Assembly: GCA_041649615.1 (NCBI GenBank)
Contig: JBAZMT010000001.1
Coordinates: forward strand, 26,981-90,980
Reading direction: 5' to 3'
Length of the DNA: 64,000 bases
Source of the DNA: Parcubacteria group bacterium
GTDB lineage: Bacteria; Patescibacteriota; Minisyncoccia; UBA6257; Colwellbacteraceae
The position numbers and the translations under genes were made by a program. The notes below the pieces were generated by a model. It had not been told where the DNA came from. It was given only the letters and a program-made list of their open reading frames with translations, and made no database searches. Positions 20,169 to 60,118 of this stretch are shown here, piece after piece; the stretch's first letter is position 1, and every line of letters begins with the position of its first letter.

Positions 20169-20229
20169 TTTCGATGTATCTTAATCTTTAACCCTTTTTG
20201 TTTTGTTTCGATACAGTGTTGACTTGGTG

Positions 20230-20300
20230 CTGCCGGGCAGGGATTCGGACCCCGATACCATGCTCCAGAGGCATGTGTCCTACCATTAGACGACCCGGCA
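20230..20300 (-). tRNA. tRNA-Gln (anticodon CUG)
   Basis: Reverse complement TGCCGGGTCGTCTAATGGTAGGACACATGCCTCTGGAGCATGGTATCGGGGTCCGAATCCCTGCCCGGCAG folds as a cloverleaf: 7-bp acceptor, anticodon stem CATGC/GCATG, loop CTCTGGA. CCA is not encoded. Confidence 0.8.
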
Positions 20301-32653: not shown

Positions 32654-34066
32654 CTAACGGGATAGAAGAAGGGGAGTAATATCCGAGATGTTTCCGGCGC
32701 CCATTAGGACGAGGATATCGCCCTTTTTTAAGGAGAGCTTAGCTATGCTTGGTTTAATATTTTTAACATTCTTAATATAAGTTGCTTTTGAAACCTGGAT
32801 TCCCGCCTTCGTGGGAATGACGGAAGATGGGAGATTATTAATATCGCGCGCGAGGGATTTGGAGTTTTTGGTTTTGGATAATTCATCTCTTCCTTTGGGA
32901 TTATAGGCATCAAGAAGAAGAACGTAATCGGCGTCGTTCCAAGAGGAAACGAAATCTTTATACAAAGCGGTGAGCCTTCGTTGTTGATGAGGCTCAAAAC
33001 AGACGGCGATACTCTGGCTTGGAAATTTTTCGCGGAGCGCTTGCAAGGTCGCTTTTATTTCCGTTGGATGATGAGCGTAATCGTCATAAACTTTAACGCC
33101 GTTTTTCGTAACGCCTTTATACTCAATTCGACGCCAAACCCCTTTGAATTCCGATAAGGCGCTTAAAATTGTTTTCTCGTTTATTCCTAACTTCTCTCCA
33201 AGTTTATATGCGGCAAGAGCGTTCATTATATTGTGTGTTCCCGGAATTTTGATAACGCGTTTTATTTTTTGAATTTCGGATTTGTTTTTTTCTGAAAAAT
33301 TAATTATGTTCCCCCATCCTTTTAAGCGGGGGATTAGAGATGCCGAATTTTTGTTGTCGCCGTTCAGGATTATATCTCCTTTTTTCGGAACGGATTTGAG
33401 AAACTTCAAAAACGAATTCTTGACGGCCTTCAAATCTTCATAAAAATCAACGTGCTCCAGATCAATGTTCGTGACAATCGCGGCGTACGGCCTGTAATGC
33501 CAAAAGGCGCCTTTATATTCGTCGGCTTCAATCACGAGCCAGTCACTTTTACCGTGTCGCATATTCCAACCGTTCAATTTGGTTCCAATAATGACCGTAG
33601 GGTCCATTTTAGCCTTAATAAGGATCGTTGAGACCATTGCGGTCGTAGTGCTCTTGCCGTGACTGCCGGCGATGGCGATTGTCTTATACTTCTTTGTTAA
33701 TTCTCCCAGAGCTTCGGGATAGGTCTCTCGCTTAATATCCAAATTATCCGCCTTCTGTAATTCGGAGTTATCTAAGGGTATAGCGGCTGAATAGATAACT
33801 AAATCAGCCTTTTCGGGCAAATTTACCGATTTGTGCCCAATTTTGACCTTTATCCCGTCTTTCTTTAATTCCCTGGTAATTTGACTTTCTACGGCATCAG
33901 AACCTGTTACGAGCCAATTTTCGGCCAAAAACCAACGAGCTAAGGAGCTCATTCCAATGCCGCCTATACCGATGAAATGAACCACTTTTCTGTTGGCCTG
34001 ATAGGGGAGACTGACGCCTGAGCGAACTTTAGGTTTTACAAATTTAGACATATTCGGATACAACAT
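32654..34066 (-). CDS. murC: UDP-N-acetylmuramate--L-alanine ligase
   Basis: VHFIGIGGIGMSSLARWF Rossmann N-terminus, Mur ligase P-loop GSHGKSTTTAM, C-terminal KKGDILVLMGAGNI. True start may be the Met at 34051. Contains an in-frame copy of the palindromic repeat (residues SVIPTKAGIQ). Confidence 0.85.
   Translation of the reverse strand: MLYPNMSKFVKPKVRSGVSLPYQANRKVVHFIGIGGIGMSSLARWFLAENWLVTGSDAVESQITRELKKDGIKVKIGHKSVNLPEKADLVIYSAAIPLDNSELQKADNLDIKRETYPEALGELTKKYKTIAIAGSHGKSTTTAMVSTILIKAKMDPTVIIGTKLNGWNMRHGKSDWLVIEADEYKGAFWHYRPYAAIVTNIDLEHVDFYEDLKAVKNSFLKFLKSVPKKGDIILNGDNKNSASLIPRLKGWGNIINFSEKNKSEIQKIKRVIKIPGTHNIMNALAAYKLGEKLGINEKTILSALSEFKGVWRRIEYKGVTKNGVKVYDDYAHHPTEIKATLQALREKFPSQSIAVCFEPHQQRRLTALYKDFVSSWNDADYVLLLDAYNPKGRDELSKTKNSKSLARDINNLPSSVIPTKAGIQVSKATYIKNVKNIKPSIAKLSLKKGDILVLMGAGNISDITPLLLSR
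32797..32823. repeat. palindromic repeat element copy A (GGATTCCCGCcttcGTGGGAATGACGG), inside murC coding sequence
   Basis: 8-bp inverted repeat ATTCCCGC/GTGGGAAT with 4-nt loop. Shares flanks aacCTGG...GAATGACrGAA with the other copies. Translated in-frame as SVIPTKAGIQ within murC. Confidence 0.8.
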
Positions 34067-34068
34067 AC

Positions 34069-34096
34069 CGGATTCCCGGCGTACCGGGAATGACAG
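34069..34096. repeat. palindromic repeat element copy B (CGGATTCCCGGcgtaCCGGGAATGACAGAA)
   Basis: Perfect 8-bp stem ATTCCCGG/CCGGGAAT, loop CGTA. Lies 3 bp upstream of the annotated murC start. Confidence 0.8.
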
Positions 34097-48686: not shown

Positions 48687-48760
48687 TGTCAGGTCGTCTA
48701 ATGGTAGGACAGCGGCCTTTGAAGCCGTGAATCATGGTTCGAATCCATGCCTGACAGCCA
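48687..48760 (+). tRNA. tRNA-Gln (anticodon UUG)
   Basis: TGTCAGGTCGTCTAATGGTAGGACAGCGGCCTTTGAAGCCGTGAATCATGGTTCGAATCCATGCCTGACAGCCA: 7-bp acceptor, anticodon loop CTTTGAA, TTCGAAT T-loop, encoded CCA. Confidence 0.8.
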
Positions 48761-52812: not shown

Positions 52813-52830
52813 CGTTAAAGAAATTATAAC

Positions 52831-52861
52831 AAAAAATGCCTCAATAATGAGGCATTTTTTG
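52831..52861 (-). terminator. rho-independent terminator downstream of rnpB (bidirectional hairpin)
   Basis: aatgcctcaataatgaggcatt hairpin flanked by A6 and T6, immediately 3' of the RNase P RNA 3' end on the minus strand. Confidence 0.65.
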
Positions 52862-53375
52862 TGCGGCCGGGTAAGCCGGATTCTGTAATCACCTCTCCAG
52901 TTTTACGTCTGTAAAACTGGAGAGGGATGATGGCAATTTATCTAGGTCTAAGATTACTCTTAGACTCAAGCGACTCCCTATGACCCGCTTTTGCTCTTGC
53001 GAGCTATAGCGAGGCATAGTACGGTCTTGCATTCCACAAGGATTTAGCCGTTTCACTTCCGTTTTTTGTCCCTATCACGGAATTAAGCCTTCTACGTTGG
53101 GATGGGGCTCTCCTCAGCTTTTCAGCTCGATATTTCTATCGGCTCGCTTTTGCGCTTGCGCGCTATAGCGTAGCGAAGACGTCACTGCTCGCACCTCTCT
53201 TATCAAATAAATTGGTAAGGACGGCTTTTAACCGCTGTGTTTTTCCCCTCTCCAGTTTTCGTAAAAACTGAGGAGGGAGAAAGTCCAGACTTTCCTCATC
53301 TCATTTCTTAATACTGATTCCCGCTTTCGTGGAAATAACAGAGAGAAACAAAACGCTGCCATCCGGGCCGCAATT
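52862..53375 (-). ncRNA. rnpB: RNase P RNA, bacterial type A (M1 RNA-like), unusually long
   Basis: Minus-strand sequence contains GAGGAAAGUCUGGACUUUC (P4 5' strand, cf. GAGGAAAGUCCGGGCUCC; + strand 53285-53297) and ACAGAAUCCGGCUUA (P4 3' strand; + strand 52872-52886). It also has CCUAGAUAAAUUGCC (cf. CCUAGAUGAAUGAC), GCUUGAG + P17-like hairpin, AAGGCUUAAU...AGGG (cf. AAGGCCAAAUAGGGG) and CCCAUCCCAACGUAGAAGGCU (cf. CCACCCGGAGCAAGGCC). A putative P1 pairs GCGGCC (53363-53372 region) with GGCCGC at the 3' end. Ends are approximate. Confidence 0.65.
53316..53346. repeat. degenerate repeat-like hairpin (GATTCCCGCtttcGTGGAAATAACAGAG), alternatively the P3 helix of rnpB
   Basis: Resembles the repeat consensus with 2 stem mismatches. 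On the minus strand it forms an AUUUCCAC-GAAA-GCGGGAAU hairpin (GNRA loop) at the position expected for RNase P P3. Confidence 0.4.
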
Positions 53376-53412
53376 GTTTATAACATAAAAATGCAACAAC
53401 GTCAATCAACCT

Positions 53413-53439
53413 GAATTCCCGCCTGCGCGGGAATGACAG
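53413..53439. repeat. palindromic repeat element copy C (GAATTCCCGCctgcGCGGGAATGACAG)
   Basis: Stem ATTCCCGC/GCGGGAAT, loop CTGC, flank aacCTGA...GACAGAAAAA. Intergenic between the rnpB 5' end and the ppiB start. Confidence 0.8.
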
Positions 53440-53476
53440 AAAAAGGAAAGAATAAATGTGGTAAAATGGGAAAAAT

Positions 53477-54151
53477 ATGAAAAATAAACTGATAATAGCG
53501 GGACTGGTCGCTTTAGTGGCAACGGCGTCAACGCTTATCTTTTTTGCCGCTAAGACCGAATCAAGTAAAAAGACCGCCGAACCGGAAGAGATAGTAATCA
53601 GCGAAACCGTTCCTTCCGAGGGAATAACGAATGAAGAAACAAATACAAACCAATCAACAAACAAAGTGGAAAATTTTAAACATATCGTAACGCTTGAGAC
53701 ATCTTTGGGAACCATAAAAATAGAAACTTATGACGCTGACGCGCCGAAAACCGTAGAAAACTTTTTGAAGCTCGCGAGCGATGGATTTTATAACGGTGTG
53801 ATGTTTCATCGCGTCATAGACGGATTCATGATCCAAGGCGGAGATCCGACCGGAACGGGCTTTGGAGGTCCCGGATACACGTTCGCGGACGAACTTAATC
53901 CGAAAACGGAGTCATACAAAAACGATTATAAGAAGGGCGTAGTCGCCATGGCGAATTCGGGACCGAATACCAACGGCAGTCAGTTCTTCATAGTGGTTGC
54001 CGATTATCCTTTGCCGCATAATTACACGATTTTTGGAAGGGTCATTGAGGGACAAGATGTGGCGGATAAGATTGCGAAAGTAAAAAGAGATTCAGCCGAT
54101 AAACCGTTAGAAGACGTAGTGATCAGAAAAGCAACCGTAACGGAAAAATGA
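53477..54151 (+). CDS. ppiB: peptidyl-prolyl cis-trans isomerase (cyclophilin type), membrane-anchored
   Basis: FHRVIDGFMIQGGDP...MANSGPNTNGSQFFIV cyclophilin signature. N-terminal TM. Confidence 0.9.
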   Translation: MKNKLIIAGLVALVATASTLIFFAAKTESSKKTAEPEEIVISETVPSEGITNEETNTNQSTNKVENFKHIVTLETSLGTIKIETYDADAPKTVENFLKLASDGFYNGVMFHRVIDGFMIQGGDPTGTGFGGPGYTFADELNPKTESYKNDYKKGVVAMANSGPNTNGSQFFIVVADYPLPHNYTIFGRVIEGQDVADKIAKVKRDSADKPLEDVVIRKATVTEK

Positions 54152-58871: not shown

Positions 58872-58898
58872 GGATTCCCGGTACGCCGGGAATGACAG
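58872..58898. repeat. palindromic repeat element copy D (GGATTCCCGGtacgCCGGGAATGACAG)
   Basis: Perfect stem ATTCCCGG/CCGGGAAT, loop TACG, flank aaaCCTGG...GACAGAAGG. Intergenic, 3' of the gtrA-like gene. Confidence 0.8.
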
Positions 58899-59359: not shown

Positions 59360-60118
59360 TTATTGTACTGGATTCCCGCTTCCGCGGGAATGACGGAGGG
59401 ATGCAATTACTATCGGGACTTCTTTTAATTTTAAACTAGCGCCGCCAACAAGAACACCGGAAACGTCCGGGGCTTCGGCGTATATTTCCGCGTTCGCCGG
59501 ATTAACCGATCCGCCGTAAAGCACTTTAGCTTTTTTACCGAAGATTTTTTGGAATCTTTCCGCCATCGCTTCCATAACCGGCGCCATTTCTTTCAAAGTC
59601 GCATTCCTTCCTCCGCTCGTGGTGCTTATGGCCCAAACGGGTTCGTAGGTGAGAATGATTTTATCCGCCTTTTCTTTCGGAACCCCCGAGAGAGAATCGT
59701 TTAATTGCGCAATAACCGTTTTAATGGCGGATGGAACGCTTGTTCTTTTTCTTTCGCCAACGCAAACAATGGGGATAACGCCCGCGTTTATCGCGGCTAA
59801 AGTTTTTTTGGAAACCGATTCGGAGGTTTCGCCAAAGTTTTTTCTTCGCTCTGAATGACCCAAAATGGCGTATTTAACGCCAAGACTTTCAAGCTGCGCA
59901 AAAGAATACTCCCCCGTGTATGCGCCCTCCGTATAAAATCCGTCTTGCGAGCCCAAGGACGCGTGTTTTAATTTGCCCGCGACAAGAGACAAAAAAGGCG
60001 CCGGCGGACAGACGATGACGTTTGGGGAATCCGAGGCGGAAGCAAGCAATTTCGCTTCGGCAGAAGAAGCGGGATTGCATTTCCAGTTCATAACTACGAG
60101 TTTATCGGAGGTTTTCAT
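59360..60118 (-). CDS. tpiA: triose-phosphate isomerase
   Basis: NWKCN, ILGHSERR, YEPVWAI(S/G)TG motifs. C-terminal 10 residues (SLRHSRGSGNPVQ) are encoded by a copy of the palindromic repeat. Confidence 0.9.
   Translation of the reverse strand: MKTSDKLVVMNWKCNPASSAEAKLLASASDSPNVIVCPPAPFLSLVAGKLKHASLGSQDGFYTEGAYTGEYSFAQLESLGVKYAILGHSERRKNFGETSESVSKKTLAAINAGVIPIVCVGERKRTSVPSAIKTVIAQLNDSLSGVPKEKADKIILTYEPVWAISTTSGGRNATLKEMAPVMEAMAERFQKIFGKKAKVLYGGSVNPANAEIYAEAPDVSGVLVGGASLKLKEVPIVIASLRHSRGSGNPVQ
59370..59396. repeat. palindromic repeat element copy E (GGATTCCCGCttccGCGGGAATGACGG), inside tpiA 3' end
   Basis: Stem ATTCCCGC/GCGGGAAT, loop TTCC. Encodes the last residues of TpiA (RHSRGSGNPVQ*). 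The automated ORF for gtrA read through it as SVIPAEAGIQ. Confidence 0.8.

Follow-up and report, generated by a model that had tools for sequence, protein, structure and literature searches.

RNase P RNA genes (rnpB) of CPR bacteria depart from the reference models in several ways. In the study of Lui, Nielsen and Arkin (2021, PMC8172020), CPR rnpB genes were detectable only below the Rfam cut-offs and needed manual refolding, and the RNAs had large helix extensions or missing P13/P14/P16/P17, the examples being RNAs with an extended P15, without P12 or without P15. The type B RNAs contain P5.1, P10.1 and P15.1 and lack P6, P16 and P17, P5.1 being listed for this type only (PMC2858038, Table 3). 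Short elements inside structured-RNA genes have also been described. Rickettsia palindromic elements (RPEs) occur in ORFs and in tmRNA and M1 RNA genes (Ogata et al. 2000, 2002, as summarized by Delihas 2008, PMC2229807), the rRNA genes of CPR bacteria contain many short, ORF-less, non-intron insertions at the tops or bases of stem-loops (Tsurumaki et al. 2024, PMC11270868), and STRR repeats lie inside rnpB of heterocyst-forming cyanobacteria (Vioque 1997, Nucleic Acids Res 25:3471, as cited in PMC2858038).

The locus described here lies on the minus strand of the window, by which we mean the whole 64-kb stretch of DNA analysed, and is a genuine rnpB of the class-A lineage, from the MAG of an uncultured, ultra-small bacterium of the Parcubacteria group (CPR/Patescibacteria). 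The cmscan match to RF00010 (RNaseP_bact_a) spans the full-length model (positions 1–367) with a score of 72.6 bits and an E value of 7.4e-22; class A was the covariance model chosen, and lower-scoring clan members were suppressed. The sequence-only reading had placed an RNase P RNA on the minus strand at 52862–53375, with a length of about 510 nt and an excess of about 130 nt over M1 RNA. The covariance model upholds this with small corrections, giving 53374..52856, which corresponds to 519 nt and exceeds the 377-nt M1 RNA of E. coli by about 140 nt. By the curated gathering score of 100 bits the RNA falls outside RF00010, and a scan at this threshold returns no rnpB; standard annotation at the Rfam threshold would therefore miss the gene. 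The shortfall coincides with large insertions and with a low-confidence alignment of the S-domain. A permissive covariance-model scan of the whole window gave no second RNase P match, and thus no better candidate there, and the MFE z-score of the RNA is –7.96.

Six relatives (L001, L004, L007, L100, L102 and L103) have rnpB in the same gene order (rnpB, PPIase, DHHA1, PGK); their rnpB genes measure 404–592 nt and score 41–77 bits against RF00010, all under the gathering threshold. Around the PPIase homologues P0064, P0062, P0035 and P0006 the synteny is lost, and no rnpB was obtained from them. Searching genome contigs with the P4 18-mer GAGGAAAGTCTGGACTTT returned at least 47 loci, mostly from Chlamydiae, Clostridia and others, among which only L084 is close, and L084 is the same species as L001. 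Viral contigs contained no match to the rnpB core pattern and none to the pattern of the H hairpins discussed below. The promoter-like element in front of P1 (Table 1) was not flagged by the consensus promoter scan, which accepts a –10 hexamer only with T as its sixth base.

Table 1. Features of the rnpB locus and copies of the dispersed palindrome, in window coordinates
Feature	Position	Strand	Description	Basis
rnpB	52856..53374	-	RNase P RNA gene, 519 nt by covariance model	RF00010 match and synteny with relatives
Promoter-like element	53377..53405	-	TTGACG, 17-nt spacer ending TGT, TATAAA; 5–6 nt before P1	By eye; putative
Intrinsic-terminator-like hairpin	52829..52862	-	15 bp, then T run; abuts P1 3' strand	Inverted-repeat and terminator scans
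P3 apical insertion	53314..53341	-	CUG-UU-AUUUCCAC-GAAA-GCGGGAAU-CAG; apparent diverged palindrome copy	
P4 5' strand	53284..53292	-	Within GAGGAAAGUCUGGAC (CR-I)	Aligns to model P4
H1	53245..53278	-	15-bp hairpin, UACG loop, one C.A mismatch, two G.U pairs; between 5' strands of P5 and P7	
M1	53142..53174	-	GCU-A-CGC-UAUA-GCGC-GCAA-GCGC-AAAA-GCG-AGC	Repeat search, helix map
P12-position arm	53111..53179	-	Four-way junction without unpaired linkers, 5-bp base; hairpins capped GCAA (M1), GAAA, GAAA	
Hairpins X and Y	53057..53110	-	X: GAGCC/GGCUU, 16-nt loop with AUCCC; Y: UUCCGU/ACGGAA, 14-nt loop with GGGA	
P16/P17 with M2	52979..53018	-	UAUG-C-CUCGC-UAUA-GCUC-GCAA-GAGC-AAAA-GCGGG-U-CAUA	Model P16/P17 alignment, helix map
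P18	52946..52965	-	Intact 8-bp hairpin, GUAA loop	Model alignment, helix map
H2	52888..52928	-	18-bp hairpin: 15 perfect pairs plus 3 past a 1-nt bulge; loop AGAC	
P4 3' strand	52873..52880	-	Within ACAGAAUCCGGCUUA (CR-V)	Covariance-model alignment, helix map
Palindrome, intact	53415..53434	-	10 nt upstream of the –35 element	
Palindrome	32799..32818	-	In murC ORF (32654..34066, -), in frame as SVIPTKAGIQV	
Palindrome	34072..34091	-	Immediately upstream of murC start codon	
Palindrome	58874..58893	-	Intergenic	
Palindrome	59372..59391	-	Over last ~10 codons of triosephosphate isomerase ORF, past the Pfam domain	
Proposed relocating module			Stem CCCUCUCCAGUUUU/AAAACUGGAGAGGG and analogues; candidate sites 16S h40 and h44, rnpB P3, P5.1 site and P19	

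The catalytic core is well defined. Both blocks of the P4 pseudoknot are present (GAGGAAAGUC... and ACAGAA.CCGGCUUA), and helices P1, P2, P3, P5, P7, P8, P10/11, P15 and P18 follow in canonical order in the helix map, in which the P4 strands and the P15–P18 region, already recognized on the minus strand from the sequence alone, are in place. Covariation was scored on six complete sequences, complete relatives being available to that number only. In the core-structure alignment 92.2% of cells are paired and 21 pairs have changed on both sides; none of 500 shuffles reached the observed score, and slid controls gave 35–46% pairing. Compensatory changes are seen in P2, P3, P8 and P18, while P5, P7, P10, P11 and P15 are invariant among the sequences compared. 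All eight pairs of P4 are intact in all six sequences and invariant, and hence provide no covariation evidence. Core helices covary across the six syntenic relatives. The sequence-only assignment named a covariance-model search as its own test, and by that test it stands, with an E value of about 1e-21 for the region and no better candidate in the window.

Some local pairings required a choice. The preferred P7 is CACA/UGUG and the preferred P8 is GYGG-UUAAAAG-CCRC, which carries a C-G to U-A compensatory change in L001; the cmscan placement of H1 on P7/P8 was dropped, and the cmscan alignment of the S-domain has low posterior probability. A long-range helix proposed by RNAalifold (CGAGC..GAC with GUC-GCUUG), all positions of which are invariant and which conflicts with P15, was dropped as well. 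No partner for P6 was found, J5/7 being taken up by H1. The catalytic core would comprise P1–P5, including the P4 pseudoknot with its GAGGAAAGUC and ACAGAAUCCGGCUUA blocks, together with P7–P11 and P15–P18. Such a core is the one known from bacterial RNase P RNAs of class A, and the RNA is therefore expected to remove 5' leaders from pre-tRNAs as these do.

Our structural comparison reveals that the RNA and class A (RF00010, E. coli M1) have in common the P4 pseudoknot, CR-I/CR-V, P1–P3, P5, P7–P11, P15–P17, the GNRA-looped P18 and the order of elements. By comparison, the differences from class A occur in J5/7, which contains a hairpin where P6 should form, in the absence of a clear P13/P14 after the GUGAAA block, in the P12 position, which is taken by a four-way junction and then two further hairpins, and in a long P19. 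Hairpins at the P5.1 position and P19 are features of type B (Bacillus type) RNAs; unlike in type B, where P5.1 replaces P16/P17, the present RNA keeps P16/P17, and neither P10.1 nor P15.1 was found in it, and it is not a member of type B. A hairpin between P5 and P7, a P19 hairpin, the lack of a recognizable P6 and a rearranged S-domain would together make up the architecture of the clade. The CPR RNAs of Lui et al. (2021) come from the same phylum-level group and show the same sub-threshold divergence, whereas the sections of that study drawn on here describe no intramolecular duplicated modules, P5.1-position hairpin or palindromic-repeat insertions.

The extra ~100 nt of this rnpB would stem from three processes, namely inherited expansions, insertion of a palindrome and twin hairpin capping, with peripheral helix tips as the sites of rapid module turnover. 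We put the probability of this account as a whole, that is, of a functional rnpB with clade-typical architecture whose helix tips turn over by these three processes, at roughly 0.7.

The inherited expansions are found in the S-domain and in P16/P17. Two GCAA modules at 53145–53170 (M1) and 52986–53011 (M2), each of 26 nt, lie 159 nt apart and are identical at 24 of 26 positions against a chance expectation of 0, in agreement with the paired GCAA-tetraloop modules about 160 nt apart seen in the sequence-only reading. The two differences between them are compensatory (GCGC/GCGC vs GCUC/GAGC). The four-way junction that carries M1 is supported by the helix map and by the MFE fold, and is common to L103 with compensatory changes (AGCU/AGCU vs AACC/GGUU), including double changes in four of the five pairs of its base helix. 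In addition, the L103 orthologue of M1 reads CGC-UGUA-GCGC-GUAA-GCGC-GAAA-GCG, with GUAA replacing GCAA, and P17 of L004 (CCCGC-AUA-GCUCC-AAA-GGAGC-GAA-GUGGG) is related to M2 through the common core CGC-(U)AUA-GCUC...GAGC. With M1 common to L103 and M2 resembling P17 of L004, the GCAA modules are most readily read as inherited structure. The likeness of M1 to M2 exceeds the likeness of either to its own orthologue, and hence exceeds what simple vertical inheritance gives, so that partial homogenization or a shared motif constraint is needed.

M1 and M2 would represent one module type, in which a 4-bp stem joins a 4x4 A-rich internal loop to a GNRA loop, with orthologues in different relatives. 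The inherited expansions would then be the P12-position junction with its three GNRA-capped hairpins, M1 among them, and P16/P17 with M2. K-turn and loop-E motifs were considered for the internal loops of M1 and M2, and UAUA/AAAA fits neither clearly. The corresponding UGUA/GAAA loop of L103 does match a loop-E-like pattern (GUA/GAA). For M1 and M2, reciprocal docking of tetraloop and receptor was also considered; with 4 bp between loop and internal loop, it appears geometrically unlikely. Further along the S-domain, the GUGAAA block runs directly into the 3' strand of P11, with no helices at the place of P13/P14 in the model, and hairpins X and Y, both of which show compensatory changes and thus covary, stand before this block. 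The names given to the S-domain helices (P12/P13/P14) are tentative.

The second process concerns the apex of P3. The palindrome ATTCCC-N8-GGGAAT occurs six times in the window versus 0.36 expected, with all copies in one orientation, and the six aligned copies share 16 invariant columns, flanks included; the element measures ~30 nt. It forms a dispersed family, with a consensus extending beyond the palindrome, filled and empty sites, one copy translated in frame within murC and another inside rnpB. The P3 apex (53317–53342) is 81% identical to the palindrome upstream of rnpB (53415–53440), a pair missed by the sequence-only reading. None of the six relatives has the insert in P3, and no palindrome copies were found in ~50 kb of relatives' DNA. 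Similarly, the murC insert is missing in homologues P0124, P0130, P0134 and P0136, and other homologues have different inserts there. In k-mer scans no other segment of rnpB was found copied elsewhere in the window or in the relatives' loci. An independent Logan contig (L010) ends exactly at the upstream palindrome at 53415..53434. These sequence comparisons indicate that the P3 apex is a copy of the dispersed genomic palindrome. A repeated palindrome of ~30 nt would thus have been inserted into the P3 loop, and the genome would tolerate this element between genes, inside an RNA gene and, with the reading frame kept, inside a protein-coding gene.

[quoted passage not shown] Unlike the RPEs, which measure 105–146 bp, it is ~30 nt in size and comes from another phylum, with a copy number that refers to the 64 kb only. 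The aligned flanks show no evident target-site duplication, no terminal inverted repeats or TA ends were identified, and the element does not conform to the RPE/MITE definition (terminal inverted repeats, target-site duplication, ~100–200 bp). The P3 palindrome works like an RPE without being a member of that family, and in size it is nearer to REP-type palindromes. The cyanobacterial STRRs are said to be tandem heptanucleotide repeats in one helix, and reportedly sit in P12 and are dispensable. They have in common with the present case a genome-wide short repeat within a peripheral rnpB helix, and differ in that palindromic hairpins at several helices are found in the window.

The third process concerns H1 and H2, the two nearly identical hairpins that had been noticed from the sequence alone and whose common blocks are 94% (TCACCTCTCCAGTTTT vs TCCCCTCTCCAGTTTT) and 87% (AAAACTGGAGAGGGA vs AAAACTGAGGAGGGA) identical. 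The H stem is CCTCTCCAGTTTT / AAAACTGGAGAGG. The inverted-repeat arms of H1 are located at 53241–53259 and 53264–53282, and those of H2, 15 nt long and 100% complementary, at 52892–52906 and 52911–52925; MFE and centroid folds both give H1 and H2 as local hairpins. H1 occupies the site of P5.1 in type B RNAs. H2 was previously thought to extend P18, but P18 is intact, and H2 instead lies at the P19 position between the 3' strands of P2 and P4, abutting P2 without a linker. The similarity score between the P5.1 and P19 sites within this rnpB is 36, a value reached by none of 2000 shuffles and to be compared with a cross-species background of 4–16, and the stem motif is found nowhere else in the 64-kb window. 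Both sites have UCUC...GGGAU-type flanks. Every relative has a shorter, variable hairpin of unrelated sequence at the P5.1 site, and wherever the 3' end of a relative is complete, a P19-site hairpin of 18 to 127 nt is present. L004 has twin hairpins of its own, unrelated in sequence (UCCGCC-GAUAA-GGCGGA and UUCGCC-GAAA-GGCGGA; score 23, 0 of 2000 shuffles). Furthermore, L007, which is 95% identical to L004, differs in its P5.1-site hairpin, and P19 of L103 is enlarged by a 24-nt tandem duplication in 2.3 copies.

From these comparisons H1 and H2 appear to be copies of an insertable hairpin placed on short helices that were already there. The hairpins already present at the P5.1 site and at P19 would both have been capped by copies of one 14–15-bp stem, most likely by copying or insertion of a palindromic module as at CPR rRNA helix tips. 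A single intragenic copy event explains the twins equally well, and what we infer here extends to both the direction and the mechanism of the copying. Of the earlier suggestion that the added elements are either mobile hairpins or lineage-specific expansions, the mobile-like part agrees with the P3 apex and apparently with H1/H2, and fails for the GCAA modules, which are inherited.

Hairpins of this kind are also present in other structured RNAs. The metagenome search was exhaustive, covering 241 million records with a 20-nt pattern, in a collection in which the window's own contig was not found. In L014/L016 the H stem makes up a ~50-nt element at 16S h40; it is also the tip of 16S h44 in L041, where the 16S is only 82.5% identical, and P3 of rnpB in L015, a Ca. 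Paceibacterota MAG. L015 and L016, possibly different organisms, come from a common metagenome (Ga0209541). All true-hairpin matches of this search lie in structured-RNA genes of Parcubacteria-like organisms, and no metagenome locus had two H matches. At 16S h40 and h44 the H-stem elements, with their patchy distribution, belong to the class of insertions described by Tsurumaki et al. (2024); that class is known from rRNA genes only, whereas here the stem is also found in rnpB, at three helices in two organisms. H1/H2 and the h40 and h44 elements are all extended stem-loops at helix tips that are patchy among relatives, as in IVSs.

The common stem in 16S h40, 16S h44 and P3 of the L015 rnpB suggests an insertable hairpin module. 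The stem is of low complexity, being polypyrimidine/polypurine plus U4/A4, and the native 3' strand of h40 already reads AAACUGGAGGAAGG; given this, and given an exhaustive search, the likeness to 16S and to L015 could be partly coincidence. That Parcubacteria may harbor small palindromic hairpin modules relocating between the helix tips of structured-RNA genes is a speculative proposal, to which we give clearly less than even odds.

The strongest alternative, in our view a possible one with the odds against it, is that all extra helices are ordinary lineage-specific expansions, with H1/H2 produced by intragenic template switching or gene conversion and the 16S and L015 matches coincidental. 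Such an origin would be in line with the lack of further H copies in 64 kb, with the twins of L004 and the differing L007, which fit repeated intragenic copying between the two sites, with the tandem duplication in P19 of L103, with the flanks common to both sites, and with a low-complexity stem retrieved by an exhaustive search. It accounts less well for a ~50-nt element at two 16S sites in 16S sequences of 82.5% identity, which indicates that such hairpins do relocate, for the restriction of hairpin-type matches to structured-RNA genes of Parcubacteria-like organisms, and for the P3 apex, where rnpB has accepted a dispersed palindrome.

H1 and H2, and with them the P3 insert, could also be IVS-like, with RNase III cutting the stems and leaving a mature RNA that is in pieces or shortened from 519 nt. 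Stems of 15–18 bp extending pre-existing helix tips are reminiscent of rRNA IVSs, the short ORF-less insertions of CPR rRNA may be IVS-like (Tsurumaki et al. 2024, PMC11270868), and Neisseria palindromic repeats are RNase III substrates according to the review (PMC2229807). These stems are, however, at the short end for RNase III, and the sequence nowhere requires excision; we regard this reading as improbable, and the inserts would be retained in the mature RNA.

Another explanation of the twin sequences invokes a functional long-range helix between H1 (3' arm) and H2 (5' arm) that would bridge the P5/P7 and P2/P4 junctions. The two segments (52913–52926 and 53246–53259) are complementary at 14 of 14 positions, better than the imperfect stem of H1 itself. 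The likeness nevertheless extends to both arms of both hairpins, which argues for whole-hairpin copying, the MFE and centroid folds give two local hairpins, L004 favors the opposite combination of arms with no consistent trend, and the helix would add a pseudoknot crossing P2, making this explanation very unlikely. Least credible of all is a decaying pseudogene or an assembly artefact, which the sub-threshold score and the break of an independent assembly at the upstream palindrome might suggest, as the universal core blocks and core helices are all intact, promoter-like and terminator elements stand on either side, the syntenic genes of relatives score equally low, and repeats of 14–26 nt are too short for assembly chimeras.

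In the favored account, a functional rnpB with turnover at its helix tips, every addition is located at the end of a helix and at a distance from the conserved core, and the additions are therefore most likely tolerated passengers or stabilizing struts rather than new catalytic parts. An essential gene is missed at the Rfam threshold here and in six of six relatives, which bears on completeness checks of CPR genomes, a point already argued by Lui et al. (2021, PMC8172020). In addition, the clade provides a natural experiment on the positions at which a ribozyme tolerates additions, namely the P3 tip, the P5/P7 junction, the P12 arm, P16/17 and P19, and the peripheral hairpins can be altogether different between close relatives whose cores are 95% identical. 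The presence of a ~30-nt palindrome in rnpB and, in frame, in murC extends the Rickettsia 'selfish palindrome in essential genes' to an unrelated phylum with reduced genomes. If the proposal of relocating hairpins is true, the expansion segments of CPR rRNA and RNase P RNA would be built in part by one class of mobile hairpin, and the recurrent P5.1/P19 twins, in the window and independently in L004, would be the footprint of such a hairpin; if the H stem moves between the tips of rRNA and rnpB, this would offer a concrete mechanism for the origin of expansion segments.

A permissive covariance-model scan matched the RNase P RNA gene (rnpB) of the window to Rfam RNaseP_bact_a (RF00010) over the full model (1-367) with 72.6 bits and an E value of 7.4e-22, the gathering score of this family being 100 bits, and detected no second RNase P match in the entire 64-kb window. 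The gene called by the sequence-only reading is thus real. Its fold is much more stable than that of shuffled sequence (z = -7.96). A promoter-like element read by eye, in which 17 nt including a TG motif separate TTGACG from TATAAA, lies 5' of the gene and is left unflagged by the stricter rule of the promoter scan, and a terminator-like hairpin of 15 bp with a T run follows directly at the 3' side. A pipeline missing this sub-threshold gene could annotate the overlapping ORFs of 44-135 aa as hypothetical proteins. L010, a Logan contig assembled independently from the same organism, stops upstream of rnpB exactly at the first base of a palindrome (L010:1-20 = window 53415-53434), so the rnpB sequence stands without a second, independent assembly; this break could be due to differences between strains or to reduced coverage over the repeat. 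At Rfam gathering thresholds, only two tRNA genes were reported in the window. Its two tRNA-Gln genes comprise a tRNA-Gln (UUG) with an encoded 3' CCA (..CCTGACAGCCA) and a tRNA-Gln (CUG) lacking CCA (..CCCGGCAGCAC).

Features of the window and of related loci
Feature	Position	Strand	Size	Remark
Window rnpB	53374..52856	-	519 nt	
H1	53245..53278			twin hairpin
H2	52888..52928			twin hairpin
M1	53142..53174			GCAA module
M2	within 52979..53018			GCAA module
Mechanical ORFs	53308-53715, 53228-53362, 52889-53056	-	44-135 aa	overlap rnpB and upstream region
Palindrome copy	53415			upstream of rnpB
Palindrome copy	34072			upstream of murC
Palindrome copy	58874			intergenic spacer
Palindrome copy	59372			very end of tpiA ORF, overlapping last codons
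Palindrome copy	32799-32818			inside murC ORF 32654..34066 (-), in-frame peptide SVIPTKAGIQV
tRNA-Gln genes	48687-48760, 20229-20300			
Relative rnpB, L001 (= L084)			404 nt	75.0 bits (Rfam)
Relative rnpB, L004 / L102			423 nt	65.7 bits (Rfam)
Relative rnpB, L007			about 416 nt	
Relative rnpB, L100	L100:985-1440		456 nt	77.4 bits (Rfam)
Relative rnpB, L103	L103:826-1417		592 nt	41.2 bits (Rfam)
Relative rnpB, L098			partial	3' end cut; 40.8 bits (Rfam)
Tandem duplication, L103	L103:904-958			24-nt unit x 2.3, 96% matches
16S gene, L041	L041:2157-3956	-		
Group-I-intron-like match	L041:1264-1499			
16S gene, L014	L014:5442-6894			
16S gene, L016	L016:6102-7584			
Group-II-intron D1-D4 match	L014:5060-5173			

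The peptidyl-prolyl isomerase (PPIase) adjoining rnpB is 100% identical to a protein from a 'Parcubacteria group bacterium' MAG, and the order rnpB, PPIase, DHHA1, PGK, fn3 protein is kept on the contigs encoding the closest PPIase homologues. The same slot on the relatives' contigs holds a sub-threshold RF00010 match at each scanned locus, and that of L103 exceeds the window gene, which is therefore not the longest of the clade. As described by Lui et al. 2021 (PMC8172020), rnpB of CPR bacteria (Patescibacteria) often falls under Rfam cut-offs, with helices extended or missing.

The alignable core of a helix map of the window RNA was projected onto a seven-sequence rnpB alignment. Standard pairs account for 92.2% of core cells, 21 core pairs change on both sides, and the covariation score was matched by none of 500 shuffles; RNAalifold agrees, and sliding the partners by 1-3 columns as a control brought pairing down to 35-46%. 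Neither P4 nor the universal sequence blocks are disrupted, and P18 is an ordinary 8-bp hairpin with a GUAA loop. Distinct from canonical type A RNAs, those of the clade carry one hairpin where P19 lies and another that separates the 5' strand of P5 from that of P7, and no P6 is recognizable in them. The hairpin between P5 and P7 occupies the site of P5.1 in type B RNAs, an element otherwise given as type-B-only in Table 3 of PMC2858038. In the S-domain, three helical elements precede the GUGAAA block and none follows it, so P13/P14 cannot be assigned. P9 is much lengthened in L103, and P16/P17 is enlarged to about 110 nt in L100, where L001 has a short hairpin only.

Both repeat pairs of the sequence-only reading, the twin hairpins H1 and H2 and the GCAA modules M1 and M2, are real and far beyond chance, and its interpretation was largely right, except that H2, assigned there as an extension of P18, is flanked by the P2 and P4 3' strands, at the P19 position. 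In the window RNA, the stem CCUCUCCAGUUUU/AAAACUGGAGAGG is found at both the P5.1 and P19 sites; it is perfect in H2, and in H1 a UC-to-CU swap results in a C.A mismatch and a G.U pair. All relatives carry hairpins at both sites, shorter and unrelated in sequence to H1/H2. The two sites of the window RNA reach a similarity score of 36 (0/2000 shuffles) against a cross-species background of 4-16, and L004 has independent twins of different sequence at the same sites (score 23, 0/2000 shuffles). L007, 95% identical to L004, has a different hairpin at the P5.1 site, and the P19-site hairpin of L103 has grown to about 127 nt via a 24-nt tandem duplication, together indicating that the hairpin tips turn over quickly, often by copying. 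The 64-kb window holds no further copy of the H stem.

A metagenome scan for this stem returned 40 loci, most of which are chance matches, and the true-hairpin matches all fall within structured-RNA genes. An element of ~50 nt with the H stem occurs in 16S h40 of L014, L016 and four other contigs, and again, with 3 differences, at the h44 tip of L041, whose 16S is only 82.5% identical. A further H-stem hairpin forms P3 of the L015 rnpB; L015 is a Ca. Paceibacterota MAG that shares its source metagenome with L016. The stem is of low complexity and native h40 sequence overlaps the motif, and in such an exhaustive search one coincidence is possible. Numerous short insertions that are not introns, contain no ORF and may be IVS-like are described at the stem-loop tops of CPR rRNA genes (PMC11270868). 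These, together with the H-stem hairpins in structured-RNA genes, lead us to favour the view that H1 and H2 represent an insertable hairpin module present in two copies.

Other insertions were seen in these 16S genes. At the h40 site of L041, a 13-bp inverted repeat (AGCCCCUUUGGCA / UGCCAAAAGGGCU) flanks an insertion of ~330 nt, which encodes a protein of 84 aa with a GIY-YIG nuclease domain (Pfam E 2.6e-17); the group-I-intron-like match lies downstream. The L014 and L016 genes are 98.6% identical and fully divergent after ...TTGTACTC, at about E. coli position 1390-1400, which fits the insertion site described at position 1400 in CPR; the group-II-intron match of L014 lies just past this point.

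The GCAA modules, by comparison with their orthologues, are best read as inherited structure. M1 forms one of the arms in a four-way junction without unpaired linkers, where a base of 5 bp is joined by three hairpins with GCAA, GAAA and GAAA loops. L103 has the entire junction, with GUAA for GCAA and UGUA/GAAA for UAUA/AAAA; its third hairpin differs by two compensatory pairs (window AGCU/AGCU, L103 AACC/GGUU), and 4/5 base pairs of the base helix covary across the clade. M2 is P16/P17, with the L004 counterpart CCCGC-AUA-GCUCC-AAA-GGAGC-GAA-GUGGG. Recent wholesale duplication is unlikely, since the distal stem of each module matches that of its own orthologue (M1 GCGC/GCGC as in L103; M2 GCUC/GAGC as in L004). 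M1 and M2 are nevertheless 24/26 identical, closer to each other than either to its own orthologue, which points to shared motif constraint or partial homogenisation. No known 3D motif could be assigned to their internal loop.

The palindrome ATTCCC-N8-GGGAAT has 6 copies in the window versus 0.36 expected, in a single orientation throughout, and the aligned copies extend to a ~30-nt consensus, TCTGTCATTCCC-N8-GGGAATCCAGG (minus strand). In Neisseria, the dRS3 repeat has the same consensus, ATTCCC-N8-GGGAAT, presumably by coincidence. The P3 apex of rnpB agrees at all 16 invariant columns, identifying it as a copy of this dispersed palindrome. The P3 insert is absent from rnpB of every relative in the alignment, and no palindrome copy was found in any of the relatives' loci. 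The insert site in murC is hypervariable, with several homologues lacking an insert. [quoted passage not shown] P0123, the MurC of the L004-type genome, has extra similar peptides at two sites (alignment columns ~25-45 and ~431-450): LSAGEVGRAARLG lies close to the N-terminus, whereas SPRSLSEVGS occupies the C-terminal hypervariable site that holds the insert of the window MurC. These peptides hint that this genome has its own in-frame repeat family.

All additions of the window rnpB are located at helix ends, and ordinary RNase P catalysis is predicted from the conserved core. Most simply, the added hairpins would be tolerated passengers or stabilising struts; GNRA tetraloops cap five of the additions, which could make tertiary contacts. 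The RNA belongs with the diverged RNase P RNAs already known from CPR. Three features are of moderate interest: the hairpin at the type-B P5.1 position within a class-A framework, the RPE-like palindrome in both rnpB P3 and murC, and the twin hairpins H1/H2, which may be part of a hairpin family that rRNA also carries.
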